Positions 5,261 through 57,170 of a stretch of DNA of 64,000 nt are shown in pieces. The DNA is from Actinomycetota bacterium (GTDB taxonomy: Bacteria > Actinomycetota > Thermoleophilia > Solirubrobacterales > 70-9). The position numbers and the translations under genes are program-made. How positions within the stretch are numbered: position 1 is the stretch's first letter; each line of letters begins with the position of its first letter. Location of the stretch: contig JAFDWO010000136.1 of the NCBI GenBank assembly GCA_018268415.1, positions 494 to 64,493 of the forward strand. The letters run 5' to 3'. The notes below the pieces were generated by a model. That model was given only the letters and a program-made list of their open reading frames with translations, had not been told where the DNA came from and did no database searches.

Positions 5261-5343
5261 GGCCCTGCAAGTCTGTAACCAGCACGGGCGCCGGGTGTCC
5301 TTACCCACTCAGCGCCATTCCTTGAGGAGGAACCAGAGAACTT

Positions 5344-6489
5344 ATGAGCGAGAGCAACGGAGCACACGGGCGCGACGAGGCCAAGGTCCGCGTCGCGATC
5401 GTCGGGGTCGGCAACTGCGCCAACTCCTTCATCCAGGGCGTCCACTACTACAAGGACGCCGATCCGACCGACGAAGTCCCGGGCCTGATGCACGTCGACC
5501 TCGGCGGGTACCACGTGCGTGACGTCGAGTTCGTCGCCGCCTTCGACATCGACCAGGAGAAGGTCGGCAAGGACCTCTCCGAGGCGATGTGGTCGGGGCA
5601 GAACGACACGATCAAGTTCGCCGACGTGCCGCACATCGGCGTCACCGTCCAGCGCGGCATGACCCACGACGGCCTCGGCAAGTACCTGAAAGAGAAAATC
5701 ACCAAGGCGCCCGGCGAAACCGTCGATGTCGTGAAAGTCCTCCAGGACACGAAGGCCGACGTCGTCGTCTGCTACCTGCCGGTCGGCTCCGAGGACGCCA
5801 CCAAGTGGTACGTCGAACAGGCCCTCAAAGCCGGCGTCGGCGTCGTCAACTGCCTGCCGGTGTTCATCGCCCGCGAGGACTACTGGGACAAGCAGTTCGA
5901 GAAAGCCGGGCTGCCGATCATCGGTGACGACATCAAGAGCCAGGTCGGCGCGACGATCGTCCACCGCCAGCTCGCCCGCCTGTTCCACGACCGCGGCGTG
6001 CGCCTCGAGCGGACCTCGCAGCTGAACGTCGGCGGCAACATGGACTTCTACAACATGCTCGAGCGCGAGCGGCTGGACTCGAAGAAGATCTCGAAGACCA
6101 ACGCCGTCACCTCGATCATGGGGCATGACCTGCCGCCCGAGAACGTCCACGTTGGCCCCTCCGACTACGTGCCGTGGCTGACCGATCGCAAGTGGGCGCA
6201 CATCCGCCTCGAGGGCAAAGCCTTCGGGGACGTGCCGCTGACCGCGGAGCTGAAGCTCGAGGTCTGGGACTCGCCGAACTCGGCCGGCGTCGTGATCGAC
6301 GCGGTGCGGCTGATCAAGCTGGCGTTGAACAACGGCATCTCGGGCCAGCTCGACGGCCCCTCCAGCTACCTGATGAAGAGCCCCCACTCGCAGCGTCCCG
6401 ACGACGAAGCGCGGGAACTGACCGAGGAATTCATCGAGGTCAACGCGCGCGGCGCGCGGACGCCGGTGGCCGAAGTTCCGCAGGACTGA
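5344..6489 (+). CDS. ino1: myo-inositol-1-phosphate (inositol-3-phosphate) synthase
   Basis: 381 aa. N-terminal Rossmann [22 protein letters not shown] and overall actinobacterial Ino1-like sequence. GAGGAGG RBS upstream. Confidence 0.9.
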
Positions 6490-6497
6490 GTCGAGGC

Positions 6498-6564
6498 GGG
6501 GGAGCGGGGTGACCCCTCTCTCACGAACAGCAGGGAGGTTCGTTCGGGGTCACCCCGCTCCCCC
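6498..6564 (+). terminator. long GC hairpin downstream of ino1 (19-bp outer arms GGGGGAGCGGGGTGACCCC / GGGGTCACCCCGCTCCCCC plus inner ACGAAC/GTTCGT stem)
   Basis: Starts 9 nt after the ino1 stop. No U-tract, so it resembles the hairpin-only terminators described in high-GC actinobacteria. Confidence 0.6.
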
Positions 6565-6611
6565 TCGTCTCGCAGGAGCCTGCTTCGGCGGGCTCCTATT
6601 GTTTAGCTGAC

Positions 6612-7916: not shown

Positions 7917-8578
7917 TGCACTCCGCTCGTCGCAAAGGAGGCGCGCCGACCTCGTCAAAGAGGTCCCGGCAGATGCATTCGACCGACGACGAGATCCGCG
8001 AGAAGTACCTCGAGAGGGCGATCCGCGAGCTCAACCAGATGAGCCGCGAAATCCTCGACTGCCCCTATTGCCCGCGCGGGAAGCTGATGCCGGTGCTCGG
8101 CTCCGGGCACCCGCAGGCGGACGTGATGATGATCAAGCACTCGCCGCTCTCCTCCGAGATCGAGGAGGGGGTCGCGTTCTACGGGCGCTCGGGCAACGCG
8201 CTGATGAAATCGTTCAAACGACTGGGGATCGACCCGATCGTCGTCTACGGGACGCTCTGTGTGAAGTGCCCGGTGGCGGAGCCCGACCTCGCCCCGCAGG
8301 AGTGCGTCGCCCGCCTGGTCGAGGAGATCGCGATCGTCCAGCCGAAGATCGTCGTGGTCATGGGCGAACCCAGCCTGCGTGTCCTCAACGGCCTCCAGGT
8401 GCCCCTGTCGCGGCCGATCGAGCAGCGTGAGGGGGAGATCCAGGCCTTCACCCCCACCATCGACGCCCTCTACGTCCCCGACATCGACGAAAGCCTCGAC
8501 GAAGAGGGCGCCAAGCAGCGCTTCTGGCGAGCCTTCCGCATGCTCGGCAAGTGGTACGAGGACCTTCCGCCGTACTAG
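7916..8578 (+). CDS. uracil-DNA glycosylase superfamily protein (family 4/5-like)
   Basis: 220 aa. GSGHPQADVMMIKHSP ... FYGRSGNAL ... CVKCP resembles the GEGP..VM.VGE.PG / PF.G..G pattern. Its ATG overlaps the upstream TGA by 1 nt. An alternative start is Met at 7976. Confidence 0.7.
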   Translation: MHSARRKGGAPTSSKRSRQMHSTDDEIREKYLERAIRELNQMSREILDCPYCPRGKLMPVLGSGHPQADVMMIKHSPLSSEIEEGVAFYGRSGNALMKSFKRLGIDPIVVYGTLCVKCPVAEPDLAPQECVARLVEEIAIVQPKIVVVMGEPSLRVLNGLQVPLSRPIEQREGEIQAFTPTIDALYVPDIDESLDEEGAKQRFWRAFRMLGKWYEDLPPY

Positions 8579-8634
8579 GGCGCCGGACTGGCGGGCGGCG
8601 GGCGTCTTCCGCCACGCTCTCTCAACGCCCCGAT

Positions 8635-8683
8635 GTTGATGGGCCGAAAACTCAAGCATGGCTTGAGTTTTCGGCCCATCAAC
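8635..8683. repeat. REP-like palindromic element, copy 2 (perfect 22-bp arms GTTGATGGGCCGAAAACTCAAG / CTTGAGTTTTCGGCCCATCAAC, 5-nt loop)
   Basis: Lies between convergent genes. The stop codon of the minus-strand methyltransferase ORF falls inside the right arm. Confidence 0.9.
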
Positions 8684-10067
8684 CTGGAGGTGTTGGGGAA
8701 GTGTGGCGTTCCAGCAGGGCCACGCACTCGATGTGGGGGGTCTGGGGGAACATGTCGACGGGGCGGACGCGGCGGAGCTTGTAGCCGGCCTCCTCGAGCT
8801 GGGAGGCGTTCGGGGCCAGGGTGGTCGGGTTGCAGGAGACGTAGACGATCTTCTGCGCCTCGCACTCGATCAGGCGGCGGACGATTTTCTGGGAGAGCCC
8901 GGCGCGGGGCGGGTCGACGACGACCACGTCCGGTTTGCCCGCCTCCTCGATCAGGGGGCGCACGCCGGTGCGGGCGTTGGCGGCGACGAACCTGGCGTTC
9001 TCGATCTTGTTGCGGCGGGCGTTGCGCTCGGCGTCGGCGATCGCCTCGGGGACGATCTCGAGGCCCCAGACCTCGCCCGCCGCCCCGGCCATCGAGAGGC
9101 CGATCGTGCCGATGCCGCAGAAGAGATCGAAGACGCGCTCCCGTCCCGTCAGCCCGGCGAACTCGGTCGCCACCGCGTAGAGGCGCTCGGCCATCTCGGT
9201 GTTGGTCTGGAAGAAGGCGCCGTGGGACATCTCGAAGTCGAGACCGCAGAGCTTCTCGTGCAGGCGCTCTTCGCCGAGCGCGCCGGTCGGGCCGTCGGTG
9301 CCGCCCGAGTCACCCTCGATCGTCGTGTGGAGGTCGACCGGTGGCCGCGGCAGCCGTGACGCGGTGGTGACCAGGCGGGTCTGGATCTGGCCGGTCCGCC
9401 GCCCCTCGCGGACGACGAGGTTGCGCAGCACGCCGCGCCGCGCCCGCGCGTCGTAGGCGGGGACGTCCTCCAGCCGGGCCCATTCGCGCACCCCGTTGCG
9501 CGCCGCGTTCCCCGCTTCGGAGGCGAGCTTGCAGTCGTCGACGTCGACGATCAGATCCCAGCGGCCGCGCGCGTGGAAGCCGAGCGCGACGCCCTCGTCG
9601 GCGGTGCCGACGGCACCCTCGCCGAAGGAGTACTCGAGCTTGTTGCGATACCGCCACTCTTCGACGGCGGGGACGATCGGCTCCATCTCGAAGCCGTCGA
9701 GGCCGCCGATCCGTCGCAGCGAATCCTCCACCTGGGCCTGCTTCTCGGCCAGCTGGCGCTCGTAGGGAAGGCCCTGCCACGGGGCGCCGGGGCAGGGCTC
9801 GCCGCCGTGGATGCAGCGGTCAGGGGTCCGGTCGGCGCCGGGACGAAGGAGGTCGATCGTGCGCGCCTCGGCGAAGCGCTTCTTGCCTTTCGTCACCTCG
9901 GCGAGGACGCGGTCACCCGGCAGCCCGCCCGCGACGAAGAGGACGAAGCCGTCCGCGCGGGCGACCCCGCGGCCGCCGAAGGCGAGCGAGTCGATCTCCA
10001 CCTCGAGCCGCTCGCCTCGGCGCGGCGCCTTCCGCGGCGCCGCCTCGGTTCCGGTCCCGGCCTCCAC
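8679..10067 (-). CDS. TRAM-domain class I SAM-dependent RNA (uracil-5) methyltransferase, RlmD/RumA family
   Basis: 462 aa with a GTG start. N-terminal TRAM-like region (LEVEIDSLAFGGRGVAR), then DLFCGIGTIGL, DPPRAGL and YVSCNPTTLA motifs. Confidence 0.8.
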   Translation of the reverse strand: MEAGTGTEAAPRKAPRRGERLEVEIDSLAFGGRGVARADGFVLFVAGGLPGDRVLAEVTKGKKRFAEARTIDLLRPGADRTPDRCIHGGEPCPGAPWQGLPYERQLAEKQAQVEDSLRRIGGLDGFEMEPIVPAVEEWRYRNKLEYSFGEGAVGTADEGVALGFHARGRWDLIVDVDDCKLASEAGNAARNGVREWARLEDVPAYDARARRGVLRNLVVREGRRTGQIQTRLVTTASRLPRPPVDLHTTIEGDSGGTDGPTGALGEERLHEKLCGLDFEMSHGAFFQTNTEMAERLYAVATEFAGLTGRERVFDLFCGIGTIGLSMAGAAGEVWGLEIVPEAIADAERNARRNKIENARFVAANARTGVRPLIEEAGKPDVVVVDPPRAGLSQKIVRRLIECEAQKIVYVSCNPTTLAPNASQLEEAGYKLRRVRPVDMFPQTPHIECVALLERHTSPTPPG

Positions 10068-12659: not shown

Positions 12660-12941
12660 TTGATCCGGGCCCGGGAAGCGACCGGGCGCCGGTTCCTCCA
12701 GACGATCACGGAGGCACGACTTCGTGATCGTCCCCGTGTCGTCTTCCCCACGCACCCCTCCCGTCCCGGGTACGCACCTCGGGGGCCGCCCCGCCACGCA
12801 TCCGACGTCGATGGCGCGTCAACATCCCCGGCGCGCCTGATCGCTATCGTGTCCGACCCGCTGCCCAAGCGGAATTCTCGCTACCATGGGCGGCATACGC
12901 AAGAGTTTTGGAGCGGTCAACCAAGAGAGGATAGGCGGGGA

Positions 12942-13787
12942 ATGTCGCCTGTAGAAACTGAGAAGCAGGAGGGTCCTTTGGCGCGCACCGTGAGCGCGTT
13001 GGTCGACGATGCGGCGGAGCGTCTTGCCGCGGTGGGGATCGATACCCCGCGCGAGGACGCGGAAGCGATCGTTGCCGACGCCCTGGGCGTCAAACCCTCG
13101 GAGCTCTCGGTCGACAGCGCCGACGACGTCTCCGCGGAGGCTGCCGCCGCGATCGAGGCGATGGTCCGCAAGCGGGTCGAACGCGAACCGCTGGCCTACG
13201 TCCTCGGCCGCGCCCCGTTTCGCGATCTCGAGATCGCCGTCGACTCGCGCGTGCTGTGGCCGCGCAAGGAGACCGAGCTGCTGGTCGAGGTGGGGACGAA
13301 GCTGCCGCAGGGTGCCCGCGTCCACGAGGTCGGCACCGGCTCCGGGGCGATCGCCCTGGCGCTGATGTCGGAGCGTCCCGACCTGAAGATCACCGCCTCG
13401 GACCTCTCGCCGGAGGCGGTCGAAGCGGCGCGCGAGAACGCCGAGCGCCTCGGCCTCGACTTCGACGTGCGGGTCGCCAAGGGCCTGCCGGACGACCTCG
13501 GCGAGGTCGACATGGTGATCGCCAACCTCCCGTACATCAGCGACGAGACGATCGACCAGCGCTCGCCGGAGATCCACGCCGAGCCGCTGATCGCGATCAC
13601 CGCCGATTGTGGGCCCGACGGGCTCGGGGTGATCCGTGGGTTGATCGCGGAAACGCCTTCGGGCACGCTGATGGCAATGGAGCACGACACCCACCACGGC
13701 CCGGCGATGCAGGAACTGCTGAACGAGGCGGAAACCCTGCGCGACTACGAGGGCAACGAGCGCGTCAGCGTCGGCAAGGCGCCGTGA
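12942..13787 (+). CDS. prmC: release-factor glutamine N5-methyltransferase PrmC/HemK
   Basis: ATG at 12942 of ORF 12660..13787; the upstream part is repeat DNA. VHEVGTGSGAIAL (SAM motif I) and NLPYI (NPPY-type) motifs. Confidence 0.8.
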   Translation: MSPVETEKQEGPLARTVSALVDDAAERLAAVGIDTPREDAEAIVADALGVKPSELSVDSADDVSAEAAAAIEAMVRKRVEREPLAYVLGRAPFRDLEIAVDSRVLWPRKETELLVEVGTKLPQGARVHEVGTGSGAIALALMSERPDLKITASDLSPEAVEAARENAERLGLDFDVRVAKGLPDDLGEVDMVIANLPYISDETIDQRSPEIHAEPLIAITADCGPDGLGVIRGLIAETPSGTLMAMEHDTHHGPAMQELLNEAETLRDYEGNERVSVGKAP

Positions 13788-15352
13788 CCGACGAGCCGTC
13801 GGGGCAGGACGCGGCGGCTGAGGTGGGGGCCGCCGCCGAGAGCAAGGCGCCCGCGAAGGGCGATCGCTCGGCCGACACGTCGGGCGCGAGCGAGGCAAAT
13901 CGCCGGGCGAAGGTGGAGCGGCTGCGCGGGGAAGGGATCAATCCCTACCCGCACAGCTTCCTGCCGCGTGATCACGCGGCCGACATCGTCGCCGCGCACG
14001 ATCCGGCGACGCTGGAGGAGGGCGAGCACCCGGAGTTCGGCTACCGGGTGATGGGCCGGGTGACCGGCAAGCGCGGGCACGGCAAAGTCGTCTTCTTCGA
14101 CATCCGTGACGTCAGCGGGACGATCCAGGCCTACGCGCGGCGCGACAAGCTCGGCGAGGAGGCCTTCGAGCGGATCGAAGAGCTCGATCTCGCCGACATC
14201 GTCGGGGTCGAGGGCGTCCTCTACGTGACCAAGCGGGGGGAGCTCGCGGTCAGCGTCGACACCTGCACCCTGTTGGCGCCGGCGCTGAAAGACCCGCCCG
14301 ACCTTTTTCACGGGATCAAAGACCCGGAGGTGCGCTATCGCCAGCGCGAGCTCGACCTGATCGCCAACGAATCGTCACGGGAGATCTTCAAGAAGCGCTC
14401 CGAGCTGACCTTCGCGATCCGCGAGTACATGCACGAGCGGGGCTGGGTCGAGCTGGAAACGCCGATCCTGCAGCGGCTCACCGGTGGTGCGGCGGCGCGG
14501 CCGTTCGTCACCCACCACAACGCGCTCGACCGTGATCTCTTCCTGCGCACGGCGACCGAGCTCTACCTGAAGCGGGCGATCGTCGGCGGCTTCGAGGACG
14601 TCTACGAGTTCGGCAAGTTCTTCCGCAACGAGGGGATGTCCCCGAACCACAATCCCGAGTTCACGATGCTCGAGATGTTCGTCGGCGGTGCCGACTGGAT
14701 CGGCGTCATGGAGTTCCAGGAGAACCTCGTCGCGGCCGTGGTCGAGAAGGTGATGGGGACGACGGTGGTCGAGCACGACGGGGTGGAGATCGACTTCAAG
14801 GCGCCCTGGCCGCGGGTGGTCCTGCGCGACGAGCTGCTGAAGGACACCGGCGTCGACATCTACAAGGCAAGCCGCGACGAGCTGGCGGAGCTGGCCGGGG
14901 ATGATGCCGAGGAGACCGACGACTGGGCCGGCCTCGTCGACACCCTGCAGGGCAAGCTGGTCGAGCCGAAGCTGATCCAGCCGACCTTCATCACCGTGCT
15001 GCCGATCGACATCTGGCCGCTGGTCAAGCACCACCCCGACGACCCGAAGGTCTGCGAGGCGTTCGACGGCATCGTCGCCGGGCTCGAGATCCTCGGCGGC
15101 GGCACCGACATCAACGACCCGATCGAACAGCGCGAGCGCTTCATCGGCCAGCGCGAACGTCAGGAGACCGGGGCCGAGGAGGATCCGCACCCGACCGATC
15201 TCGAGTTTGTGCGGGCGCTGGAATACGGGATGCCGCCGGCGAGCGGCTGTGGCCTCGGCATCGACCGCCTGCTGATGCTGATGACCGGGTCAAAGACCCT
15301 GCGCGACGTGATCATCTACCCGGCGATGAGGGAGCTCCCAGGCGAGCAGTGA
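13784..15352 (+). CDS. lysS: lysine--tRNA ligase, class II
   Basis: GTG at 13784 overlaps the prmC stop (GTGA). OB-fold N-domain, then class II motifs (FRNEGMSPNHNPEFTMLE, GLGIDRLLMLM). Confidence 0.9.
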   Translation: MTDEPSGQDAAAEVGAAAESKAPAKGDRSADTSGASEANRRAKVERLRGEGINPYPHSFLPRDHAADIVAAHDPATLEEGEHPEFGYRVMGRVTGKRGHGKVVFFDIRDVSGTIQAYARRDKLGEEAFERIEELDLADIVGVEGVLYVTKRGELAVSVDTCTLLAPALKDPPDLFHGIKDPEVRYRQRELDLIANESSREIFKKRSELTFAIREYMHERGWVELETPILQRLTGGAAARPFVTHHNALDRDLFLRTATELYLKRAIVGGFEDVYEFGKFFRNEGMSPNHNPEFTMLEMFVGGADWIGVMEFQENLVAAVVEKVMGTTVVEHDGVEIDFKAPWPRVVLRDELLKDTGVDIYKASRDELAELAGDDAEETDDWAGLVDTLQGKLVEPKLIQPTFITVLPIDIWPLVKHHPDDPKVCEAFDGIVAGLEILGGGTDINDPIEQRERFIGQRERQETGAEEDPHPTDLEFVRALEYGMPPASGCGLGIDRLLMLMTGSKTLRDVIIYPAMRELPGEQ

Positions 15353-15359
15353 CCTCGGT

Positions 15360-15408
15360 GTTGACGGGCCGAAAACTCAAGATGGACTTGAGTTTTCGGC
15401 CCGTCAAC
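15360..15408. repeat. REP-like palindromic element, copy 3 (perfect 22-bp arms GTTGACGGGCCGAAAACTCAAG / CTTGAGTTTTCGGCCCGTCAAC, 5-nt loop)
   Basis: Lies between the convergent lysS and SDR genes. Followed by CTGG, as in copy 2 (copy 1 has CGG). Confidence 0.9.
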
Positions 15409-15416
15409 CTGGTGCC

Positions 15417-16169
15417 TCAGACGGATCGCAGGAGGCCGCCGTCGATCGGGATCGCCGTGCCGGTGATGTAGGCGGCGCGGTCGGAGGCGAGGAAGGCGAC
15501 GAGGTCGCCGAACTCGGCGGGGAGGCCGAGGCGCTTGGCCGGAACCGTCGCGCGCGCGCTCCGCTCCGCGTTCTCCATCGAGCCCTCGTTCGCGGCCAGC
15601 CGGTCGGTGGCGAATTTGCCGGTGACGACGGTGTTGACGGTGATCCCGTCGGCGGCGACCTCGCCCGCGAGCGTCTTCAGGAACCCGACCGCCGCCGAGC
15701 GGACCGAGTTGGAGATGGCGAGGGTCGGGATCGGCTCGACGGTCGAGTTGGAGCCGACGTTGACGATCCGCCCCCAGCGGCGCTCCCGCATCCCCGGCAG
15801 GACGCCTGCGGTCAGCACCCGCACCCCGAGGACGAGCGAGCGGTAGGCCTCCTCCCACTCCGCGAGCGAGTTGTCGAACGGGCCGCCCATCGGTGGGCCG
15901 CCGCTGTTGACGACGAGGATGTCGACCGGCCCGAGCGCCGCCTCGACCTCGCCGGGAAGCTCCGCGAGCCGGTCGAGGTCACCGGCGTCGGCGACGAACG
16001 CGGTCACGTCACCGCCGAGCTCCGCGACCGTCGCGTCGAGCCGCTCGCGGCTCCGGGAGGCGACCGCCACCCGCGCCCCCTCGCGGGCCAGTGCCGCGGC
16101 GATCCCGCGCCCGATCCCCTTGCTCGCGCCCATCACCAAGGCGACGCGGTCGTCGATCCCGAGGTCCAT
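15417..16169 (-). CDS. SDR-family oxidoreductase (FabG-like)
   Basis: Start MDLGIDDRVALVMGASKGIGRGIA at 16169 (TGxxxGIG motif). 250 aa. Confidence 0.8.
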   Translation of the reverse strand: MDLGIDDRVALVMGASKGIGRGIAAALAREGARVAVASRSRERLDATVAELGGDVTAFVADAGDLDRLAELPGEVEAALGPVDILVVNSGGPPMGGPFDNSLAEWEEAYRSLVLGVRVLTAGVLPGMRERRWGRIVNVGSNSTVEPIPTLAISNSVRSAAVGFLKTLAGEVAADGITVNTVVTGKFATDRLAANEGSMENAERSARATVPAKRLGLPAEFGDLVAFLASDRAAYITGTAIPIDGGLLRSV

Positions 16170-16179
16170 GCGGTCGAGC

Positions 16180-16908
16180 CTACGGGGCGAGGCGTTCGAG
16201 CACCTCGCCGTCGGCGGAGACGGCGAGGACCGTAGGGACGACCGCGATCCCGTACTTGCGCGCAAGGTCGGGGCGCTCGCGCACGTCGAGCTTGACCAGC
16301 GTGCCGTCGGCCGCGAGCCGCCGCTCCCACTCCTGGCACTCCGAGCAGAGCGGGTGGGTGAACTCGACGAAGAGCCGGTCGGGCGCGTCGGCGGGAAGGT
16401 CGGCGGCGTCGATGCGGTCGTGGTGGCGGGGCGAGATGCCGCGCAGGCGGGCGGAGAGCTTGTAGATCTCGCAGCCGGTGCAGAAGTTGGTGACGGCGGC
16501 GAGCAGCGCGAGCGCCGCGACCAGTCCGCCGAGCACGGTGCCGACGGTCGGCGCCCCGAGCCACCAGGCGAGCGCCGCGGCGCCGAGGAAGGCGGCGCCC
16601 ATCATGTTGGCGAGGCGCGGCGGGCGCGAGTCCTCGAGCTCGCCCTCGCCGAGGCGCGGCTGGATCAGCTCGTAGTAGGCGAGGCAGGTGAGGCAGAAGC
16701 GCCGGCCGAACGTCAGCCCGAGGAACAGCTGGAGCCCCATCAGCGCCCACAGCACGGGCCAGCCGAGCACCGCCCCCGCGAGCGCCACGATCCCGACCAC
16801 CGCCTGATTGAAGCGCGGCGCGCGGGCATCGATGACGTCGGTGTCCCGCCAGGGGTCGGCGGTGCGCGGTCGGTGGGCGCTCGTGGCTGGGGATGCGGTG
16901 GCCATCAC
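16180..16908 (-). CDS. DUF4395-like membrane domain fused to a thioredoxin/glutaredoxin-like domain
   Basis: 242 aa. N-terminal about 150 aa are hydrophobic with FCLTC and FCTGCEIY cysteine pairs. The C-terminal about 80 aa carry FTHPLCSECQ (CxxC) plus a VVPTV beta-strand typical of the Trx fold. Confidence 0.6.
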   Translation of the reverse strand: MMATASPATSAHRPRTADPWRDTDVIDARAPRFNQAVVGIVALAGAVLGWPVLWALMGLQLFLGLTFGRRFCLTCLAYYELIQPRLGEGELEDSRPPRLANMMGAAFLGAAALAWWLGAPTVGTVLGGLVAALALLAAVTNFCTGCEIYKLSARLRGISPRHHDRIDAADLPADAPDRLFVEFTHPLCSECQEWERRLAADGTLVKLDVRERPDLARKYGIAVVPTVLAVSADGEVLERLAP

Positions 16909-49854: not shown

Positions 49855-50895
49855 TCATCGCGGTGGGGGGCCGGCGGTGCGGCGCCTCACCATCTCGACC
49901 GGGAACTCGAGCACCCGGCCCGGCCCGTCGTAGTCGCCGTTCAGCCGGCCGACCAGGAGCTCGGCGCTCCCGCGGGCCATCTGGTCGAGCGGCTGGCGGA
50001 TCGTGGTCAGGCCGATCGCGCTCCAGGAGCCGACCTCCATGTCGTCGAAGCCGACCACGGTGAGGTCGCCGGGGATCTCCAGCCCGGCGCTGACCGCCGC
50101 GTCCCAGGCGCCGAGCGCGATCACGTCGTTGCCGCAGAAGATCGCGGTCGGCGGCGGGTCCTCGGCGAGCAGCGAGCGGCAGCCCTCGAAGCCGGTCTCG
50201 TGCGTGTAGGGGCCGTGGCGGTAGTGGGCGGGGTCGAGCGTGGCACCGAGCTCCTCGAGCGCGGCCTGGAATCCGGCATCGCGGTCGCGCGCGGTCGAGG
50301 TCTGCGGGGGGCCGGAGATCTGCGCGATCCGCCGGTGGCCGAGCTCGACCAACAGCTCGCCCGCCAGGCGGCCGCCGGCGACGTTCTCGGAGACGACCCG
50401 GTCGAAGCGGTCGTCGTCGATGTGGCGGTTGAGGAAGACGGTCGGCGCCCGCGCCGCGGCCAGCCGGTCGCCGAGCGGGAAGTCGAGCTTGGCGGAGGTG
50501 AAGACGAGGCCGTCGATCGTGCTGCCGAGGAAGTGGTCGATGTGGTCCTGGTCGCCCCGCGCCGAGCCCTCGCTGAAGAGGATGAGGTCGTAGCCGAGCG
50601 CGCCGAACTCCCGCTCGAGGCACTCGACCAGCCGCGGGTAGAAGGGGTTGGTGATGTCGGAGAGGAAGACGCCGATCCGGTTGGCGCGCCGCGTGATCAG
50701 GCTGCGGGCCATCACGTTCGGCGAGTAATTCAGCCGCTGCGCCGCGTCGACGACCCGCGCGCGCGTCTTCTCGGAGATGTTGGGGTCCCCGTTGAGCGCC
50801 CTCGACACCGTCGATTGGGCCACCCCGGCGAGCTCCGCCACGTCGTGGCTGGTCGGCGGGCGCTGCGCACCTGAGGAGCGTTTCGTGGTCGCCAT
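49855..50895 (-). CDS. LacI-family transcriptional regulator
   Basis: Met at 50895 (MATTKRSSGAQRPPTSHDVAELAGVAQSTVSRALNG) within ORF 49855..51111. Periplasmic-binding-like effector domain. 346 aa. Confidence 0.85.
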   Translation of the reverse strand: MATTKRSSGAQRPPTSHDVAELAGVAQSTVSRALNGDPNISEKTRARVVDAAQRLNYSPNVMARSLITRRANRIGVFLSDITNPFYPRLVECLEREFGALGYDLILFSEGSARGDQDHIDHFLGSTIDGLVFTSAKLDFPLGDRLAAARAPTVFLNRHIDDDRFDRVVSENVAGGRLAGELLVELGHRRIAQISGPPQTSTARDRDAGFQAALEELGATLDPAHYRHGPYTHETGFEGCRSLLAEDPPPTAIFCGNDVIALGAWDAAVSAGLEIPGDLTVVGFDDMEVGSWSAIGLTTIRQPLDQMARGSAELLVGRLNGDYDGPGRVLEFPVEMVRRRTAGPPPR

Positions 50896-51031
50896 CGGTC
50901 GCCTCAATCTACGCAGGCGCCGGGACGATCCGGTGCCCCCGACCTGCCTCCGCCCCCGCCAAGCCCCCAACACCGAATCCGGCGCCCACCCGCCCATCGC
51001 CGCCGCATCCCACCCCCACTCCATTCCCTTC

Positions 51032-51043
51032 GCATACGTATCC
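51032..51043. promoter_or_regulatory. LacI-type operator candidate GCATACGTATCC (site 3, one half degenerate)
   Basis: About 140 bp upstream of the LacI gene start, on its promoter side. Confidence 0.35.
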
Positions 51044-51063
51044 CGGTCTACCACACCCTGCCT

Positions 51064-51096
51064 CCCCACGCCCGTCGCCCCCCGCCCCCAAGCCCC
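51064..51096 (-). other. canonical G-quadruplex motif on the minus strand (GGGG-N3-GGGGG-N1-GGGGGG-N4-GGG-N3-GGGG) within a 180-bp strand-asymmetric C-rich tract
   Basis: The plus strand of 50933..51108 is almost G-free, with at least 15 runs of C3-6. Confidence 0.5.
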
Positions 51097-51149
51097 ACCT
51101 ACCACCCGCACCGCTCAGACTTCGCCGCGTGGGTAAAGTTCCCACCCGA

Positions 51150-51245
51150 GCGCCCGTAGCTCAGTGGTCAACGGGTCCCTCCGGGGGCCCAAAGAGCGTC
51201 GGTCTTTCAAGCCGAAGGTCGCCAGTTCGAATCTGGTCGGGCGCA
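51150..51245 (+). tRNA. tRNA-like gene, anticodon UUC by position, with an 18-nt hairpin insertion in the D-loop (96 nt, no encoded CCA)
   Basis: Manual cloverleaf. Acceptor GCGCCCG/CGGGCGC (7 Watson-Crick pairs), TA, D-stem GCTC/GAGC. Anticodon stem TCGGT/GCCGA, loop CTTTCAA, variable loop AGGTC. T-arm GCCAG-TTCGAAT-CTGGT, discriminator A. The D-loop is 31 nt and contains hairpin GGGTCCC-TCCG-GGGGCCC (51173..51190). Confidence 0.65.
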
Positions 51246-51606
51246 TTCCTAGCAGTTCCGGGCAGTGCCGGTGAGGGCCGGTGCAAAGCCAAGTTGTCGG
51301 TTGCGGGTCGGAGATGCGTTCCGGAGGCTTCCTCTCGATTCCGGGGCATTCCGGGAGGTCTGTGTCGCATCCGTGTCTCATTTCGAGGTGCGAGCGATCA
51401 GCTACTCGTGCTTCTCGGCGAGCTTCGCTAGCTCACTCACCGCGCCATCGTCCTGGGCCTGCTGCTCCCGCCATCACCGAATTCATTTCATCTCGCTGCA
51501 TCGACCATCGGCTCCACCCAGGACCGCGTCTATCCGAGCCGAAGGGGCCGAAGTGGGCTCCCCCAGAGGCGCCTCCATCGAAATCGGTCGGCGATACCAT
51601 TGCCAT

Positions 51607-51852
51607 GTGACCACGAAGGAGCGCCTACACAAGCTGGTCGATGATCTGTCGGACCAGGAGGCCGAGGCCGCGTTGGTGATCGTCGAGCGTCGGCGGGACG
51701 ATCCGATGCTGCACGCGCTTGCGGCTGCTCCGCTCGATGACGAACCTTCCGACCCCGACGAGGACGCTAGTGCCGCTGAGGCGCTTGCTGCGTATCGCCG
51801 AGGCGAAGGCGTGTCTTCCGGCGACTTGCGGTCTGAGCTCGATCTCAATTGA
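51607..51852 (+). CDS. putative antitoxin (acidic C-terminus, family not recognised)
   Basis: GTG 51607 within ORF 51265..51852. 81 aa (TTKERLHKLVDDLSDQEAEAALVIVERRRDDP...). Its stop overlaps the toxin start (TTGA). Confidence 0.55.
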   Translation: MTTKERLHKLVDDLSDQEAEAALVIVERRRDDPMLHALAAAPLDDEPSDPDEDASAAEALAAYRRGEGVSSGDLRSELDLN

Positions 51853-52109
51853 CGCCAGGCTGGTCCCTTCGGTTCATGCCCCCGGCGCGGCGTGATTTGA
51901 AGCGACTCGACCGACCGGTTCAGCGGCGCATTCTCGATGCGCTCGATCGGTTCGTCGCCGCTCCACGCAGTGGCGACATTCGGAAGCTCGATTCGGTCCA
52001 GTGGCGGCTGCGGGTAGGCGACTGGCGTGTGCGCTTCAGCTTTGACGACGAGAATCAGGTCATCATCGTGCTGCGCGTCTTGCCTCGCGGGCGCGCATAC
52101 GATCGCTGA
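51849..52109 (+). CDS. RelE/ParE-family type II toxin
   Basis: 86 aa. WRLRVGDWRVRFSFDDENQVIIVLRVLPRGRAY matches the RelE/StbE core pattern (yR.RvGdyRv.y......v.vl.v.hR...Y). Confidence 0.8.
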   Translation: MTPGWSLRFMPPARRDLKRLDRPVQRRILDALDRFVAAPRSGDIRKLDSVQWRLRVGDWRVRFSFDDENQVIIVLRVLPRGRAYDR

Positions 52110-52218
52110 AGCATCATTGGCCGGTGCCTCATGACGGCTGGACCGCCGCCGCGAATCCGCCCGGCAGTCAACGCCTCGGCTTTCAAGCGTCCGGAAGACG
52201 TGAGCTGAGCTGCGCGGC

Positions 52219-53127
52219 TCAGCCGTAGTAGTAGGACAGCGAAGGAGGGCGCTTAAGCGGATTCCGACTCAACGGAGGCGGTATGCGATTCCAGCCGTCT
52301 TCGGCTGAATATCCCACTCGTGCAGCATCGGCGCTTGCGCTCGTTTGGAAAGGAGCGCCGTTCTTGTCGGACACGGTTAAGGAATGTCGTTGCCCATCCA
52401 GAAGATAGGAGAACTTCAAGCGCCACCGCACGTAATGCCGAGTCGTGTGCGCGATCACCAGGAAATGCTCTACTTCTTCGTCCTTGAGCGAGAACTGAAA
52501 CGGTGCCCGTTCAGAGTGATAGCGCCTTCGCGGTTCGAGGAATTCAATGTATGGCCTGGGCGCATCGAGGTCGATCGACAGCAATCGGGTAGGGAGCCTC
52601 GCGGCTTGGAATGGGCAATACGCTCGGACACCTCTAATAGGCGGCTCCCGCGTTACCACCTCAACTTGGGCGCGATTCAGGATCAGTGGGCCGGGCGCGG
52701 TAGACCCCACGTACAGCGAGACATACGTCGATTCCGCGTCGATGCCCCCTTCGCTCTTTGCCCAGGCTCGCCAGCTCTCGCAGCCCGGATCTTCCAGATT
52801 GACGGACGGCGGGATCCGCGCCATTTCTTCTACTGATCTGGCAAAGATGTAGCTATCTGCCGAACTGACCGAGGGTATGCCGGTTGACGAGCTAGCTTGG
52901 ACTTCTAGCGCCGTCGGGCCTCCGCTACGAACTTGACCGATCGTCACGCTCAGGGGATCCGGTTGGACACGCGTGAGCTGATCGAAGGTATCGCTACTCT
53001 TGCTGCCAATTACGCCCCCGACGCTCGCGGTGACAGCAAACAAGACGAGAGCGCCCAAAATCGTGCGGAGACCCCTGCGTCGCGCGGGCGTCCGTTGTGC
53101 CGAGCTCCATTCCCCCCGCTGAGGCAC
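52219..53127 (-). CDS. hypothetical membrane-anchored protein
   Basis: 302 aa. Arg-rich N-terminus, then one TM helix (ILGALVLFAVTASVGGVIG). No recognisable motif in the remainder. Lower GC. Confidence 0.5.
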   Translation of the reverse strand: MPQRGEWSSAQRTPARRRGLRTILGALVLFAVTASVGGVIGSKSSDTFDQLTRVQPDPLSVTIGQVRSGGPTALEVQASSSTGIPSVSSADSYIFARSVEEMARIPPSVNLEDPGCESWRAWAKSEGGIDAESTYVSLYVGSTAPGPLILNRAQVEVVTREPPIRGVRAYCPFQAARLPTRLLSIDLDAPRPYIEFLEPRRRYHSERAPFQFSLKDEEVEHFLVIAHTTRHYVRWRLKFSYLLDGQRHSLTVSDKNGAPFQTSASADAARVGYSAEDGWNRIPPPLSRNPLKRPPSLSYYYG

Positions 53128-53240
53128 AGCGCGCAGGGTACCGCGTCCATAAGGTCTCGGTACGTCTTAGGTTGTTCGATCCGGCACGCCAGCCGTCGCT
53201 AAGGCCCCACCGCTCTGAGGCTGAGGGATCCCGGGGTCCA

Positions 53241-53311
53241 GGCCTCACCTCGGTCACATCGCCGCCGCGATCCCACCCCTCAAGCCAGCGCCCTTCGTCC
53301 TTTCAATCCGA
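53241..53311. repeat. about 70-nt segment paralogous to 57071..57142, ending in a partial tRNA anticodon-arm copy (CCTTCGTCCTTTCAATCCGA)
   Basis: GGCCTCACCTCGGTCACATCGCCGCCGCGATCC aligns with TGGTCTCATTTCGGTCACATCGGCGCCGTGACC. 53292..53311 matches 57123..57142 with 1 mismatch. Confidence 0.6.
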
Positions 53312-53345
53312 TGGAGATTGGCTTTGATGCCTGCGGGCGTCCCGG

Positions 53346-54590
53346 TTATGTCCAGAGAGCGCTGATCGGAACCGCCCAGAGTCGATCGCCGAGCGGGACG
53401 GTCTGGGCGCCGGCATGAATCAGGAACCCGGCGCGGAAGTCCTCGCTGCGAGCATCCCGGATCTTCGCCATCGGCCTCCAGTCTCGTTCCCGGACCGTCG
53501 CCGCCGCCTTGACCTCAAGACAGGCGATCGCTCCTGAGCGATCCTCGAGGACGAGGTCGATCTCGTCGTTGCCGGTTCGGTAGTGGAAGAGACTTGCGTC
53601 GGTGCTCGCCCATTCGAGGTGCTTCATCACCTCCATCGCGACGAAGTTCTCGAGCGCCATTCCGGTGACTCGCTCGTCCTCGCCGAGGCGTTTCGGGTCG
53701 GCTCCGAGCAAATGGGCAAGGAGGCCGCTGTCGACGATGTAGACCTTGCGCGTCGTCGACTCACGAGCTCCGATCGACGGCCTCCAGGCGGGGAGGGTCT
53801 TGACCAGGAAGACGGTCTCCAAGAGGGTCGTGTAGCTGCGGACGGTCTTGTGCTCCAGCTGCAGTCGCTTACCCACCTCCGAGGAGTTCAGGAGGCTCGC
53901 GGCGCGACCCGCCAGCAGCTTCAGCAGCCGCGGCATCTCGCGCAATTTCTGCGCATCGCTGATGTCGCGCAGGTCGCGGTCGAGCGTCGTCTTCAGATAG
54001 TTCTCGAACCAGTTGGCCCGGCGTGAGCCGTTGCGCTTCAGCGCCTCGGGGTATCCACCGGCCGCGATTCGATCGACGAAGGCCCCGCGGCCGACCGGGG
54101 CATCGCGGATCTGAGGCGGAGCCGCGGAGAAGAGGGAGTCGACGATATTGCCGGCCGATCCCTCGATCTCGCTCTGGGACAGCGGCCACAGGGTGATGAT
54201 CTCGATCCGTCCGGTGAGCGCGTCCTGGACTTTGCGGTTGGTGAGGACGTTGGCCGAGCCCGTCAGCAGAAACTGGCCCGGCGTCTGGTCGGCGTCGACG
54301 GCCCCCTTGATCGCGAGCAGCAGATCGGGGCCGGCTCGCTGGACCTCGTCGAGCAGGACCGGGCGCGAGACGCCGGCCACGAATCCCTCGGGGTCGCTGC
54401 TCGCCGCATCTCTCGCTGCTCGGTTGTCAAGGCTGAGCACGTCAGCGAGATGCTCGGTCGCCGCGATCTCTTCCGTCAAGGTGCTCTTGCCCACCTGCCT
54501 GGCGCCCATCACGTAGACGACGCGGGTATCGGCCAGTGCTTCCAGGATCGGCTTGCGACTGTGGCGGGCGAAGTTGGCCGACATCGCCAT
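53346..54590 (-). CDS. AAA-type ATPase with a DUF4143-like C-terminal domain
   Basis: 414 aa. Walker A GARQVGKST, Walker B VLLDEVQ, C-terminal domain typical of the AAA_14/DUF4143 architecture. Confidence 0.75.
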   Translation of the reverse strand: MAMSANFARHSRKPILEALADTRVVYVMGARQVGKSTLTEEIAATEHLADVLSLDNRAARDAASSDPEGFVAGVSRPVLLDEVQRAGPDLLLAIKGAVDADQTPGQFLLTGSANVLTNRKVQDALTGRIEIITLWPLSQSEIEGSAGNIVDSLFSAAPPQIRDAPVGRGAFVDRIAAGGYPEALKRNGSRRANWFENYLKTTLDRDLRDISDAQKLREMPRLLKLLAGRAASLLNSSEVGKRLQLEHKTVRSYTTLLETVFLVKTLPAWRPSIGARESTTRKVYIVDSGLLAHLLGADPKRLGEDERVTGMALENFVAMEVMKHLEWASTDASLFHYRTGNDEIDLVLEDRSGAIACLEVKAAATVRERDWRPMAKIRDARSEDFRAGFLIHAGAQTVPLGDRLWAVPISALWT

Positions 54591-54601
54591 GAGCGTAGTG
54601 C

Positions 54602-54681
54602 AAATTGGGAAAGTCAGCTATGCAATTTGGGAGGTCACTCTAGGGAATATGGGAAGTCGGCAGGAGATAAATGGGAAGGAA
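54602..54681. repeat. four direct iterons (wAAwTGGGArGTC) with exact 22-bp phasing
   Basis: TGGGA starts at 54606, 54628, 54650 and 54672. The units are AAATTGGGAAAGTC, CAATTTGGGAGGTC, GAATATGGGAAGTC and TAAATGGGAAGGAA. They begin 16 nt upstream of the AAA ATPase start codon. Confidence 0.85.
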
Positions 54682-55045
54682 GAGGATGGCAAGCTCGCGC
54701 TCGGAAGGCGAAAGTCGCCGAGACGCCTCCGTAGGGATAGATATGGATCTAGGGACGGGCGTGGATTGCAGCGCGGCGGCTCAGCGCTTCGGCCTCCTCG
54801 CACGTCGGCCTCACCCTAATGCGCCTTCGCGGCTCGACCGAGCATGCGAGGTGCCCCCGGCTCCTGATGCCTAGGAGTCGATGGCGCCCTCCACCGCCAT
54901 CCGCGAGTTGTGTTCCAAGCTCCGCGGGGAAGGTGGGTGTTGGAGTGGGTCTCCGAGCGAATAGTCCAGGAGGAGACCGGCCGGGCGGCTAGGGCGGGCG
55001 CCACCTCGAGGTCGCCGCCATCTTCGATCCCTTTCCCCCGCAAGT

Positions 55046-56815
55046 TTGAGCGAAACCGAGACCACCTCTAACAAGCCCGCGATCTTCGAGCGCCGGGTCA
55101 AAAAGAGCTCCCGCCAACTTGGCGACGCATACCGGAAGCCGTCCGGTCAAACGGATACCAATAAAAAGATGCAGCCGACCATCGCTGGGCTAATCGACGC
55201 GGTGCGCGAAGGGGACTTGGCTCTTCCCGAGTTTCAACGGGACTATCGGTGGCCAGCTCAGTACATTGAGGAACTTCTTCGCTCTGTGGCACGGGGGTGG
55301 CCGATCGGCACTCTTCTACTGCTCGATCAGTCTGCAAGCGCCAAAGGTCTGAAGCTCGAGGCGCGCTCGATCGAAAAGGCGCCGAACTGCAAGAAGCGTC
55401 CGGAAAACCTGATCCTCGACGGCCAGCAGCGGGTGACCGCGCTCTATCACGCGATGAATGGCCTCGGCGACTCCGTCTACTACCTCAACCTCGCCAATGT
55501 CCTGAATGCCGGGGAATTCCTAGACGACGCACTTGGCTCGGCGACCGGCAAGCAGCTTACGCGGACGCTGGGTTCGGAGGACGAACGTCGCAGAAACAAG
55601 ATCATCCTCCTGAAGGAGCTCTACTCGACGGAGCTCTTTGCGCACTGGCTGGGATTCATTCCGAAAAAAGAACGCAACGCGTATGCGGCGCTGCGCGACG
55701 AGCACTTGTCCCTCTTCCGAGAGCACACGGTTGCGATTGAGCGCCTGCCCAACAGTCTGCCCGTAGAGGCGATCGCAAAGATTTTCGAGAGGACCAACAG
55801 AGGCTTTCTCCGCCTCGACGCTTTTGACCTCATGGTCGCGATCATGTATCCCCACGGCTTCAAACTTAGGGACAAATGGAGCGGGGCCGTAACTGCGAAC
55901 CCGATCCTCAAACGCTTCGAGGTCGCGCCTATCGAGATTCTTCGGCTGATCGCGCTTCGTGAGCATCTCCGACAGAAAGAGCGTCGAGTATCGCCGCAAA
56001 CTGTCAAAGGAGTACGACAGAGTGACGTATTAGAAGTCAAACCCGCCACCGTAAAAAAGGAGTGGACCTCGGCCGTTGCGGCGTATGTGCGAGCCCTCAC
56101 GTTGGCTGAGTCACACTGGGGTGTGATCCGGAAGAGGATCGTCCCCGCCGAGGCTCAGTTGCTGCCGTTAGCTGACGCGCTGTACGGCGGCAACGTCCGC
56201 AACGGATCTTCGAAGCACAAAAAGCTCGGCCGGTGGTTCTGGGCCGCAATCTTCTCCAGGCAATATGCGCGCGCGGCGAATACGCGTGCGGTTTCGGACG
56301 CAGAGGCCCTGAGGGCGTGGCTCAAACCGAGCGGACCCGAACCTCGCTACGTCGAGAATTTCAAGGTGTCAACCGAGGACTTTGTCCTCGTCGAGGAGGG
56401 AAACGAGATCCTGGTCAAGGGGCTCTGCTGCTTGCTGGTCAGCGATGGTGCTCGTAGCTGGACCAAGGCAGCGGGTGGAGGGCTGCCGTCGCTCCTAACC
56501 GAAACTGAAGCCGAGTTGGCGGTCCACCACATCTTCCCGAAGAAATTCATGGCACGCAAATCCAAAGGCACCCTGCGTCTGTTGCCTGATGTCGATGCGC
56601 CTGCAAATCAGGTCCTCATCACCGCAAGTCTGAACGGGAAACTGCTGAACGAGGCTCCGGAGTACTCCGCCAAAAATCCCGAGGTCGACATAGGCGGTCT
56701 CAAAAGCCATCGTGTCGACCCAGCCCGGATGAAGGGAAGTCAGTACAAGGCATTCGTGAACGCCCGGGCCGCAGAACTTGTCCCTCTCGTGGACCGGGCC
56801 GTCAAGGGTTATTAA
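55046..56815 (+). CDS. DUF262-domain protein with a C-terminal His-Me-finger (DUF1524-like) nuclease motif, GmrSD-like
   Basis: 589 aa from TTG 55046; a more conventional start is ATG 55169. LPEFQRDYRW and LILDGQQRVTAL (DGQQR) motifs. C-terminal HHIFPKKF ... NQVLITASLNGKLLN. Confidence 0.8.
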   Translation: MSETETTSNKPAIFERRVKKSSRQLGDAYRKPSGQTDTNKKMQPTIAGLIDAVREGDLALPEFQRDYRWPAQYIEELLRSVARGWPIGTLLLLDQSASAKGLKLEARSIEKAPNCKKRPENLILDGQQRVTALYHAMNGLGDSVYYLNLANVLNAGEFLDDALGSATGKQLTRTLGSEDERRRNKIILLKELYSTELFAHWLGFIPKKERNAYAALRDEHLSLFREHTVAIERLPNSLPVEAIAKIFERTNRGFLRLDAFDLMVAIMYPHGFKLRDKWSGAVTANPILKRFEVAPIEILRLIALREHLRQKERRVSPQTVKGVRQSDVLEVKPATVKKEWTSAVAAYVRALTLAESHWGVIRKRIVPAEAQLLPLADALYGGNVRNGSSKHKKLGRWFWAAIFSRQYARAANTRAVSDAEALRAWLKPSGPEPRYVENFKVSTEDFVLVEEGNEILVKGLCCLLVSDGARSWTKAAGGGLPSLLTETEAELAVHHIFPKKFMARKSKGTLRLLPDVDAPANQVLITASLNGKLLNEAPEYSAKNPEVDIGGLKSHRVDPARMKGSQYKAFVNARAAELVPLVDRAVKGY

Positions 56816-57070
56816 CCCACTCGCGGACTGCGTGCCAGGGCCGACGGCTCATACGGTCGAATCCGGCGGCCTCAAGATCACTCGCCTCCGGCCAGGCGCT
56901 TGGAAGGCGCCCGGGACCTCGCTCAAGGAACGACTCGCCTCAACTCCGACCTGAACGCAATCGGCACGCTCGTCGACCTTGGCATCCTCGCGCCCGCCGG
57001 ACGAACGCGACCCTCCAGCAATGCCTGCGTTTACATGGCGCCCGAGGTTGTTGAGATTGCCTCGTCCTAG

Positions 57071-57170
57071 TGGTCTCATTTCGGTCACATCGGCGCCGTG
57101 ACCTCGCTTGCCATGCGGGCCACCTTCGTCCTTTCAAGCCGAAAATCGCCAGTTCGAATCTGTAGGGCAT
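57071..57170. repeat. degenerate copy of the tRNA-like gene 3' portion (att-like direct repeat) preceded by the 53241-type segment
   Basis: 57131..57162 CTTTCAAGCCGAAAATCGCCAGTTCGAATCTG versus tRNA 51204..51235 CTTTCAAGCCGAAGGTCGCCAGTTCGAATCTG. The T-stem and acceptor 3' strands are broken (CTGTAGGGCAT). Confidence 0.8.

Follow-up and report, generated by a model that had tools for sequence, protein, structure and literature searches.

Few features in biology vary as little as the size and shape of elongator tRNAs, in which no extra arm is accepted other than the long variable one found in class II (Leu, Ser, Tyr, Sec). The class II molecules, with their five helical arms, work on the ribosome, and their short extra hairpin projects from the core and can be an identity element. 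In tRNAProX and the allo-tRNAs, the body type is mismatched with the anticodon. Short introns are present in the D-loop of archaeal tRNAs (PMC3241643), and the re-use of one tRNA body with different anticodons, known as the alloacceptor anticodon shift, is reported in PMC3923123 and PMC4783518. Allo-tRNAs are reviewed in PMC7609411. A 2020 review of non-canonical tRNAs contains no case of a helix located inside the D-loop, and no description of such a helix was found by full-text searching of the literature. The "10-nt long D-loop" mentioned in a 2026 preprint on ACA reassignment is unrelated to D-loop hairpin tRNAs. A tRNA gene with a helix of this kind lies at positions 51150-51245 of a 64-kb stretch of contig JAFDWO010000136.1 from an Actinomycetota bacterium (hereafter, the window means this whole stretch). 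Judging by its sequence and by those of its relatives, we estimate a probability of about 60% that this gene encodes a functional five-arm tRNA decoding GAA as glutamate.

Infernal aligned the gene end to end with the tRNA model RF00005 (model positions 1-71), with a score of 64.5 bits against a gathering threshold of 29 and E = 9.9e-12; the alignment places a 25-nt insertion in the D-loop. According to both ARAGORN and RF00005, it is the sole tRNA in the 64 kb. The 5' part of the sequence reads GCGCCCG TA GCTC AGTGGTCAAC-GGGTCCC-TCCG-GGGGCCC-AAA GAGC G, and the 3' part, after G26, reads TCGGT CTTTCAA GCCGA AGGTC GCCAG TTCGAAT CTGGT CGGGCGC A. All seven pairs of the acceptor stem (GCGCCCG/CGGGCGC) are Watson-Crick pairs. 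The D-stem contains 4 bp (GCUC/GAGC), preceded by U8 and A9 and followed by G26, and the anticodon stem and the T-stem contain 5 bp each, including the wobble pairs U31.G39 and G49.U65, respectively. The T-loop is TTCGAAT, the variable loop consists of five nucleotides (AGGUC), and the discriminator is A73. The nucleotides of the tertiary interactions are all present, namely U8, A14, G15/C48, G18, G19, A21, and those of the T-loop. U33, a purine at position 37, and the T-loop consensus GTTCRANYC, all expected of a tRNA, are found as well. The anticodon UUC corresponds to the codon GAA, plus GAG by wobble.

It is the D-loop that departs from the norm, with a length of 31 nt and a 7-bp hairpin, whereas the usual size is about 7-11 nt. 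When folded alone, the insert forms this hairpin with an energy of -16 kcal/mol and 99.6% of the ensemble (z = -2.9). Unlike the extra arm of class II tRNAs, which is located between the anticodon arm and the T-arm, this arm emerges at positions 20/21 of the D-loop, and with its ordinary variable loop of 5 nt and its 7/5 stacking, the molecule also differs from tRNA-Sec and the allo-tRNAs, which are marked by a long variable arm or by 8/4 or 9/4 acceptor/T stacking. An alternative cloverleaf, in which the hairpin serves as the anticodon arm and the true anticodon arm as a long variable arm, was rejected, as no D-stem is possible in it and the loop of the hairpin contains 4 nt instead of 7. No second copy of the hairpin insert exists in the window, which rules out a REP- or MITE-like repeated palindrome as its origin. 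The cloverleaf, the coordinates, and the D-loop hairpin had been described in an earlier note made from the letters of the window alone; all of them were confirmed by RF00005, by the segmentation, and by folding, and the covariance-model score is significant with the insert in place.

To type the body of the tRNA, it was compared one position at a time with 22 annotated tRNA genes of E. coli K-12 that cover 17 isotypes, excluding the anticodon arm and the D-loop; plain global alignments were not used because the hairpin distorts them. The window body is identical to that of argX (tRNA-Arg(CCG)) at 42 of 48 positions, to argU at 37, to lysT at 33, and to gltT at 23. For all five family types tested, argX ranked first among the 22 references. 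There is no difference between argX and the window tRNA in the acceptor stem (7 of 7 pairs), the D-stem, position 26, the AGGUC of the variable loop, or the T-loop. Thus, the body is not of the Glu type, as the earlier note had stated; its assignment to a Lys/Val/Ile/Thr class did not stand, since Arg comes first and a Lys-type body is ruled out by this comparison. Unlike bacterial tRNA-Arg, the window tRNA lacks the major determinant C35 owing to its UUC anticodon, G19 is followed by U instead of A20, and the hairpin occupies precisely the "variable pocket" where arginyl-tRNA synthetase (ArgRS) reads A20.

The bacterial identity determinants for glutamate are the strong anticodon-loop nucleotides U34, U35, C36, and A37, and also U11-A24, U13-G22:A46, the lack of residue 47, and U2-A71; those for lysine are A73, U34, U35, and U36, and those for arginine are A20, C35, U/G36, and A/G73 (PMC9976931). 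All four Glu determinants of the anticodon loop occur in the window tRNA (loop CUUUCAA), together with C32, U33, and G1-C72, which it shares with canonical tRNA-Glu(UUC); the 31-nt D-loop with its extra helix and the body set it apart from the latter. As for the Lys determinants, three of the four are present (A73, U34, and U35), while position 36 is C. Among the Arg determinants, only A73 is found; position 35 is U, position 36 is C, U follows G19, and adenines are available only in the CAAC linker.

A species-representative genome collection was scanned with a degenerate pattern for the 3' half of the tRNA, which yielded at least 119 loci. Among the matches listed, the same 96-nt gene was found in at least 27 species-level genomes, once in each, in nine sequence variants. 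The named carriers are Solirubrobacterales or unclassified Actinomycetota metagenome-assembled genomes, whereas the Chloroflexota and other matches to the same pattern, which serve as a control, are ordinary Glu-type tRNAs without the insert. In about 24 related genomes, the tRNA follows prmC, lysS encoding a class II lysyl-tRNA synthetase (LysRS), a methyltransferase gene, and an SDR gene; prmC, lysS, and the SDR gene lie 0.1-3 kb upstream of it, lysS itself being 1-3 kb upstream. The LysRS encoded beside the tRNA diverges to 79% amino acid identity within Solirubrobacterales (the nearest relative of the window LysRS is 95% identical, and the named matches all belong to this order), while the tRNA varies at four places only. 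These are the tetraloop, which is UCCG, UUCG, or UACG (all of the UNCG type); one hairpin pair, changed on both sides from G-C to U-G; D-loop position 16, which is U or C; and a compensated T-stem pair, A-U changed to G-C.

The motif (T/C)GCTCA-N16-TA(T/A)(C/A)(G/C)T is kept at an equal distance 5' of the tRNA in 28 loci, and the sequence farther upstream differs between them. This motif probably represents the promoter of the gene, from which the tRNA would be expressed. A scan for an E. coli-type promoter (sigma-70 consensus) and a terminator found nothing; for the promoter, this was to be expected, because the consensus is that of E. coli and the host is a 70% GC actinobacterium. A strongly C-rich stretch (ccgcccccgccaagcccccaacacc...) lies at window positions 50900-51110, directly 5' of the promoter-like motif. 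It is likely intergenic, since the overlapping LacI-family open reading frame (49855-51111, minus strand) probably starts further in, given that its LacI domain begins at residue 89. The earlier note had left a choice between a mature tRNA with an extra arm and a gene inactivated without other decay; the order-wide conservation, the covariation described below, and the promoter-like motif favor the former, and the orthologous loci in at least 27 relatives carry the insert and are not decaying.

Further pattern scans of viral and metagenome contigs revealed related copies on 12 distinct uncultured contigs with a GC content of 0.39-0.69. The anticodon is UUC in loci L001, L149, L150, L152, L156, L157 (= L161), and L160, CCU in L129 to L132, UUU in L133, and GCG in L134; L155 carries UCU and a different acceptor stem, and L153 carries UGC without G3:U70. 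The loop of the L133 tRNA is exactly the Lys loop CTTTTAA from which the window loop had been said to be one transition away. The RF00005 scores of all family members are 63-67 bits, and their body is near-constant (acceptor stem GCGC[C/A/T][C/T]G, D-stem GCUC/GAGC, and A73). The existence of members with the Arg anticodons CCU, GCG, and UCU is a further likeness to bacterial tRNA-Arg. The re-use of this body with UUC, UUU, CCU, GCG, UCU, and UGC resembles tRNA remolding, and its mismatch with the anticodon resembles that of tRNAProX and the allo-tRNAs; unlike the hairpin tRNAs, these have either a normal D-loop or an altered 8/4 or 9/3 acceptor/T stacking and no D-loop helix.

The hairpin sequences vary widely among the family members, for example, CCGCAACC-UUCG-GGGUGUGG and GUACACU-UUCG-GGUGUAC, and their length ranges from 17 to 24 nt. 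All seven variants that were folded form a helix at the same place, after the linker NAAC and before (A/G)A-A21, and both linkers are kept in all members despite the changing hairpin sequence. The hairpin loops of most members are UNCG tetraloops (UCCG, UUCG, UACG), which are typical of retained structural RNA and suggest that the arm is such an element. A covariance model (R1), which scores the window tRNA at 116.3 bits, was built from nine members, and 20 distinct sequences were aligned to the model (alignment A4). In this alignment, which was fitted to the model and is thereby biased towards pairing, 98.2% of the cells are standard pairs, and double-sided changes are found in 20 of the 28 pairs. 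The extra helix shows changes on both sides in all seven of its pairs, with 95.0% of the cells paired. None of 500 shuffles reached the observed values, and sliding the 3' partners by 1-3 columns reduced pairing to 33-46%. The extra arm is therefore a selected structure, with support equal to that of the anticodon and T stems. Together with the recurrence of this architecture in at least 27 other genomes and on the 12 contigs, these compensatory changes go far beyond chance.

The last viral scan also returned L148, L151, L154, and L159, which were discarded as false positives, each consisting of an incomplete tRNA 5' half followed by a normal tRNA. When E. coli genomes and the phages in GenBank were searched with the tRNA by BLAST, there were either no matches or only generic ones to its 3' half; no cultured phage covered at least 80% of the query, and by this search none in GenBank has a hairpin tRNA. 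A hairpin of a different kind was found on a phage contig with 42% GC, where a Gly-type tRNA (L158, 8720-8809, plus strand; anticodon UCC, U73, G1-C72, C2-G71, G3-C70) has a 25-nt D-loop with the hairpin CCUG-UUAAAAU-CAGG. Since this tRNA has its own, independent D-loop hairpin, D-loop arms appear to have arisen more than once. Additionally, two aberrant tRNA-like sequences can be noted near family members. In L149 (1003-1125, plus strand), a very aberrant 123-nt sequence is located 48 nt upstream of the hairpin tRNA(UUC); its acceptor stem is that of the family (GCGCCCA/TGGGCGC-A), its D-loop is expanded, and its anticodon region contains an insertion. In L130, a tailed-phage-like contig, a 91-nt tRNA-Sec-like gene (1723-1813, plus strand; RF01852 score 39 bits against a gathering threshold of 47) is found at a distance of 1.7 kb from the hairpin tRNA(CCU). 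Its acceptor, T, and anticodon stems contain 9, 4, and 6 bp, respectively, its variable arm is long, and its loop is CCUUCAU (C33; UUC by position); it resembles the allo-tRNAs.

The reading of GAA was analyzed in 23 LysRS orthologue genes, where this codon accounts for 14% of the Glu codons. The alignment columns with GAA otherwise hold GAG (187 cells) and GAC (45 cells), and none of the 15 most frequent codons there stands for Lys or Arg; AAA columns exchange with AAG and with CGC or CGG. GAA is therefore read as Glu in the clade, and the clade needs a U34 tRNA that inserts Glu. For the same reason, the synteny with lysS is better taken as an inherited gene order than as evidence of charging with lysine.

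In phages, the hairpin tRNA occurs in large tRNA arrays, which give the clearest hint at its codon and amino acid. The 9-kb L156 stretch (IMGVR_UViG_3300039286_000350, 1-8977) contains 28 tRNAs called by ARAGORN and a tmRNA with a tag peptide (6701-7089). Among these tRNAs are a canonical Glu-type tRNA-Glu(CUC), four ordinary tRNA-Arg, Lys(UUU) and Lys(CUU), and Gln(UUG) and Gln(CUG), while the hairpin tRNA, missed there by ARAGORN, is the only one with a UUC anticodon. The L152 array (5843-9491) comprises 14 ARAGORN-called tRNAs and a tmRNA with a tag peptide (9130-9491), and the hairpin tRNA is its only tRNA with a Glu anticodon. Because it alone has these anticodons in the two arrays, the hairpin tRNA seems to fill the tRNA-Glu(UUC) slot of the phage array, beside the canonical tRNA-Glu(CUC). 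The hairpin tRNA genes of L150, L152, and L158 adjoin helicase, ribonucleotide reductase, and terminase genes, and are thus located inside phage genomes and not at prophage ends. The oddness of identity pointed out in the earlier note can be accepted as far as the mismatch between body and anticodon is concerned, but it was overstated, as GAA behaves as Glu and the slot in the phage array is that of Glu(UUC).

Taken together, the tRNA most likely serves as a GAA(/GAG)-decoding glutamate isoacceptor in Solirubrobacterales, encoded by a single-copy chromosomal gene. According to this reading, an Arg-type body would have acquired a shifted anticodon, mostly UUC, and the mature tRNA would keep the fifth arm, a short and very stable UNCG-capped hairpin that leaves the D-loop at positions 20/21, on the outside of the L at its corner. 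This is where positions 20 to 20b loop out, and a helix there need not disturb the elbow pairs G18-psi55 and G19-C56, so the tertiary core could stay normal despite the extra arm. Glutamyl-tRNA synthetase (GluRS) would charge the tRNA chiefly via the anticodon loop (U34, U35, C36, A37), and phages would carry the same design, sometimes in large tRNA arrays, at the Glu(UUC) slot. Candidate functions of the arm are the substitution for the Glu-specific "augmented D-helix", the masking of the A20 pocket from ArgRS, and protection from tRNA-targeting nucleases. Tentatively, the D-loop-arm tRNAs may even constitute an undescribed structural class of five-armed working tRNAs, with an order-wide GAA decoder and phage-borne members, in which the function of the arm was selected either as a GluRS identity element for an Arg-type body or as a shield of the U-rich anticodon from immune nucleases.

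Several observations weigh against decoding of GAA as glutamate by this tRNA. The core Glu determinants and U2-A71 are absent, the window tRNA having C11-G24, C13-G22, the 5-nt AGGUC, and C2-G71 instead; therefore, charging by GluRS cannot be assumed. A Glu-type tRNA(UUC) is located only 370 nt from the hairpin tRNA(UUC) in L001, and a canonical tRNA-Glu(UUC) may coexist with the hairpin gene in Solirubrobacterales. The L156 array runs off one end of the stretch, and a second UUC tRNA may lie beyond it. The bias of the fitted alignment towards pairing, mentioned above, belongs here as well. Finally, the L153 tRNA, with the anticodon UGC and no G3:U70, does not fit the simple rule that the anticodon sets identity. 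This tRNA (2235-2329, plus strand) differs from the UUC loop by the replacement of U35 by G; its anticodon corresponds to the Ala codon GCA, but it has G3-C70 instead of the G3:U70 required by alanyl-tRNA synthetase, and it may represent either a dead copy or a tRNA used for recoding.

Among the alternatives, the one that survives best, though rather improbable, is a role outside translation. The tRNA would be a decoy, a nuclease-resistant spare with which a phage counters a tRNA-cleaving defence, or a partner of a tRNA-dependent enzyme, and a canonical tRNA-Glu(UUC) would decode routinely, as the Glu-type tRNA(UUC) that accompanies the hairpin tRNA of L001 could suggest. The family is indeed common on phage contigs of very different GC content, other aberrant tRNAs adjoin its members in L130 and L149, and the island beside the window gene carries defence genes (GmrSD and an AAA ATPase). 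tRNAs with the anticodons UUC, UUU, and CCU are known targets of anticodon nucleases, and all three anticodons occur in the family. On the other hand, the anticodon loop (C32, U33, A37, A38) and the tertiary core are fully canonical, there is no other UUC tRNA in the examined stretches of the L156 and L152 arrays, and the gene occurs once per genome throughout the order, preceded by its own promoter-like motif. The orthologous loci share no toxin or nuclease gene next to the tRNA that could be its partner.

It is clearly unlikely that the hairpin is an intervening sequence that is cut out, leaving halves that are rejoined or that form a two-piece tRNA of ordinary size. Removal of the hairpin alone would still leave a 13-nt D-loop, and the UNCG tetraloops, the strict pairing, and the conserved linkers point to a retained structural element, although the variable length (17-24 nt) and sequence of the hairpin are what a spacer would show. 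As in the archaeal genes with D-loop introns, a short insertion, treated by Infernal as a simple one and folding into a self-contained hairpin, interrupts the D-loop of an otherwise normal gene. Unlike in those genes, the host is a bacterium or a phage, the UNCG loops and the covariation fit a retained helix, and there is no bulge-helix-bulge: on either side of the helix there is an unpaired linker (4 and 2 nt), in place of two 3-nt bulges separated by 4 bp (no 3-4-3 motif is present at the insert; a splicing endonuclease was not searched for). Bacteria are not known to have the tRNA splicing endonuclease, RNase III needs a helix longer than 7 bp, and group I and II introns are far larger than the insert.

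Charging with lysine by the syntenic class II LysRS, or with arginine through the Arg-type body, so that GAA would be mistranslated or recoded, is very unlikely. Such charging would agree with the body type, with the three of four Lys determinants (A73, U34, U35), with lysS upstream of the tRNA in about 24 genomes, and with the sister tRNA having a UUU anticodon in L133; mistranslating tRNAs are known in Actinomycetota, for example, tRNAProX in Streptomyces. It is contradicted by the exchange of GAA with GAG and GAC in the orthologues, without Lys or Arg codons among the 15 most frequent, and by the lack of U36 for Lys and of C35 and the canonical A20 for Arg, while the lysS-tRNA synteny is confined to one order and may simply be inherited. 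That the gene is dead, disrupted when a palindrome was inserted and since then preserved for attachment alone, is hardly credible, notwithstanding a D-loop of three times the normal length, the inability of ARAGORN to assign the gene, and the role of the locus as an integration hotspot, since all helices and tertiary nucleotides are intact, compensatory changes occur in four helices including the insert, the gene is conserved in at least 27 species as well as in phage arrays and lytic-type phage modules, and the window contains no repeat of the hairpin.

If the preferred reading, a five-arm tRNA decoding GAA as glutamate, is true, the translation machinery can accommodate or make use of a fifth arm in a new place, at the elbow touched by RNase P, the ribosomal L1 stalk, L5, T-boxes, and several modification enzymes. 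A natural Arg-type body would then have been re-assigned to a Glu anticodon, which bears on the evolution of tRNA identity and on the design of orthogonal tRNAs. The spread of the family in phages of very different GC content raises the question of a link to the tRNA-cleavage arms race. This conserved structural departure in a highly constrained molecule is directly testable, as the order is abundant in soil and some of its members are cultured.

There is also a practical consequence for genome annotation. ARAGORN finds the window tRNA at the same coordinates and labels it "tRNA-???", and it reports the orthologues as "tRNA-Pro(GGG)" or as a truncated 73-nt "tRNA-Glu", depending on the hairpin variant; several phage copies are missed altogether. 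The labels "tRNA-???" and "tRNA-Pro(GGG)" arise because the extra hairpin is taken as the anticodon arm. Since the gene is called tRNA-??? or tRNA-Pro, automatic tRNA inventories, codon-capacity estimates, and attachment-site calls for this soil order may be wrong. The possibility that D-loop expansions are common and annotated in this clade had been raised earlier as a point against the significance of the gene. Common they are, but ARAGORN mis-calls them and the literature search gave no description of them, and this makes the finding broader, not weaker.

The tRNA gene is a real integration hotspot, and the statement of the earlier note that it served as an integration site for the adjacent island is well founded. 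Direct repeats of the 3' part of the tRNA are located at the far side of the inserted DNA (Table 1). Both remnants in the window are preceded by the same element arm of about 55 nt, and the arm motif GTCTCATTTC.GTCACATCG also precedes orphan tRNA 3' halves in L039, L063, and L128. No integrase homologue is left in the 64-kb window; in at least 12 orthologous loci, a conserved tyrosine integrase gene (Phage_integrase) and an Xis-like helix-turn-helix gene are found 1-3 kb downstream of the same tRNA. The integrative elements that target the gene bring its 3' half along in faithful form, so that the tRNA would be whole again after insertion, and this argues that the host needs the tRNA intact. 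In L001 (587-2495), a Glu-type tRNA(UUC) with the odd loop CUUUCCA (C37) lies between a tyrosine integrase gene and the hairpin tRNA(UUC); the element targeting this hairpin tRNA may carry its own spare GAA decoder.

Table 1. Features of the window discussed in the text (position 1 is the first nucleotide of the 64-kb stretch).
Feature	Position	Strand	Basis
tRNA gene, 96 nt; Arg-type body, anticodon UUC, A73, no encoded CCA	51150-51245	+	RF00005, family model R1
D-loop, 31 nt: AGUGGU, linker CAAC, hairpin, linker AA, A21	51163-51193	+	Position-by-position segmentation
Extra arm: 7-bp helix GGGUCCC/GGGGCCC with UNCG tetraloop UCCG, between U20 and A21	51173-51190	+	Folding and covariation
Anticodon TTC (UUC) in loop CTTTCAA (C32 U33 ... 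A37 A38)	51206-51208	+	Infernal alignment; anticodon stem covaries in the family
Promoter-like element: CGCTCA, 16 nt, TAAAGT; second hexamer ends 10 nt before the mature 5' end	51112-51139	+	Upstream conservation
Island, integrase-less, two tandem segments	51246-57125	.	Pfam matches, GC fall
ParE toxin gene	51849-52109	+	Pfam
Attachment-site-like remnant 1, degenerate: element arm and 17 nt of the tRNA anticodon arm (53295-53311)	53241-53311	+	Direct-repeat family D1
AAA_14/DUF4143 ATPase	53346-54590	-	Pfam
GmrSD-type (DUF262) restriction enzyme	55046-56815	+	Pfam
Attachment-site-like remnant 2, degenerate: same arm and tRNA copy from anticodon stem to T-arm (57126-57162, 89% identical)	57072-57162	+	Direct-repeat families D1, D2
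Ancestral neighbours, whole block	12885-16181	.	tblastn
Ancestral neighbour prmC	12885-13784	+	tblastn
Ancestral neighbour lysS, class II	13823-15352	+	tblastn
Ancestral neighbour SDR gene	15420-16181	-	tblastn

The GC content is 0.62-0.66 from 52 to 62 kb, compared with 0.68-0.78 in the core. Since it stays low up to about 62 kb, foreign DNA may extend beyond the last attachment-site remnant. On the other side of the tRNA, about 35 kb (16200-51100) separates it in the window from the prmC-lysS-SDR block. This region between the SDR gene and the tRNA contains a sugar ABC-transporter operon, a histidinol-dehydrogenase-like gene, and a LacI regulator gene.

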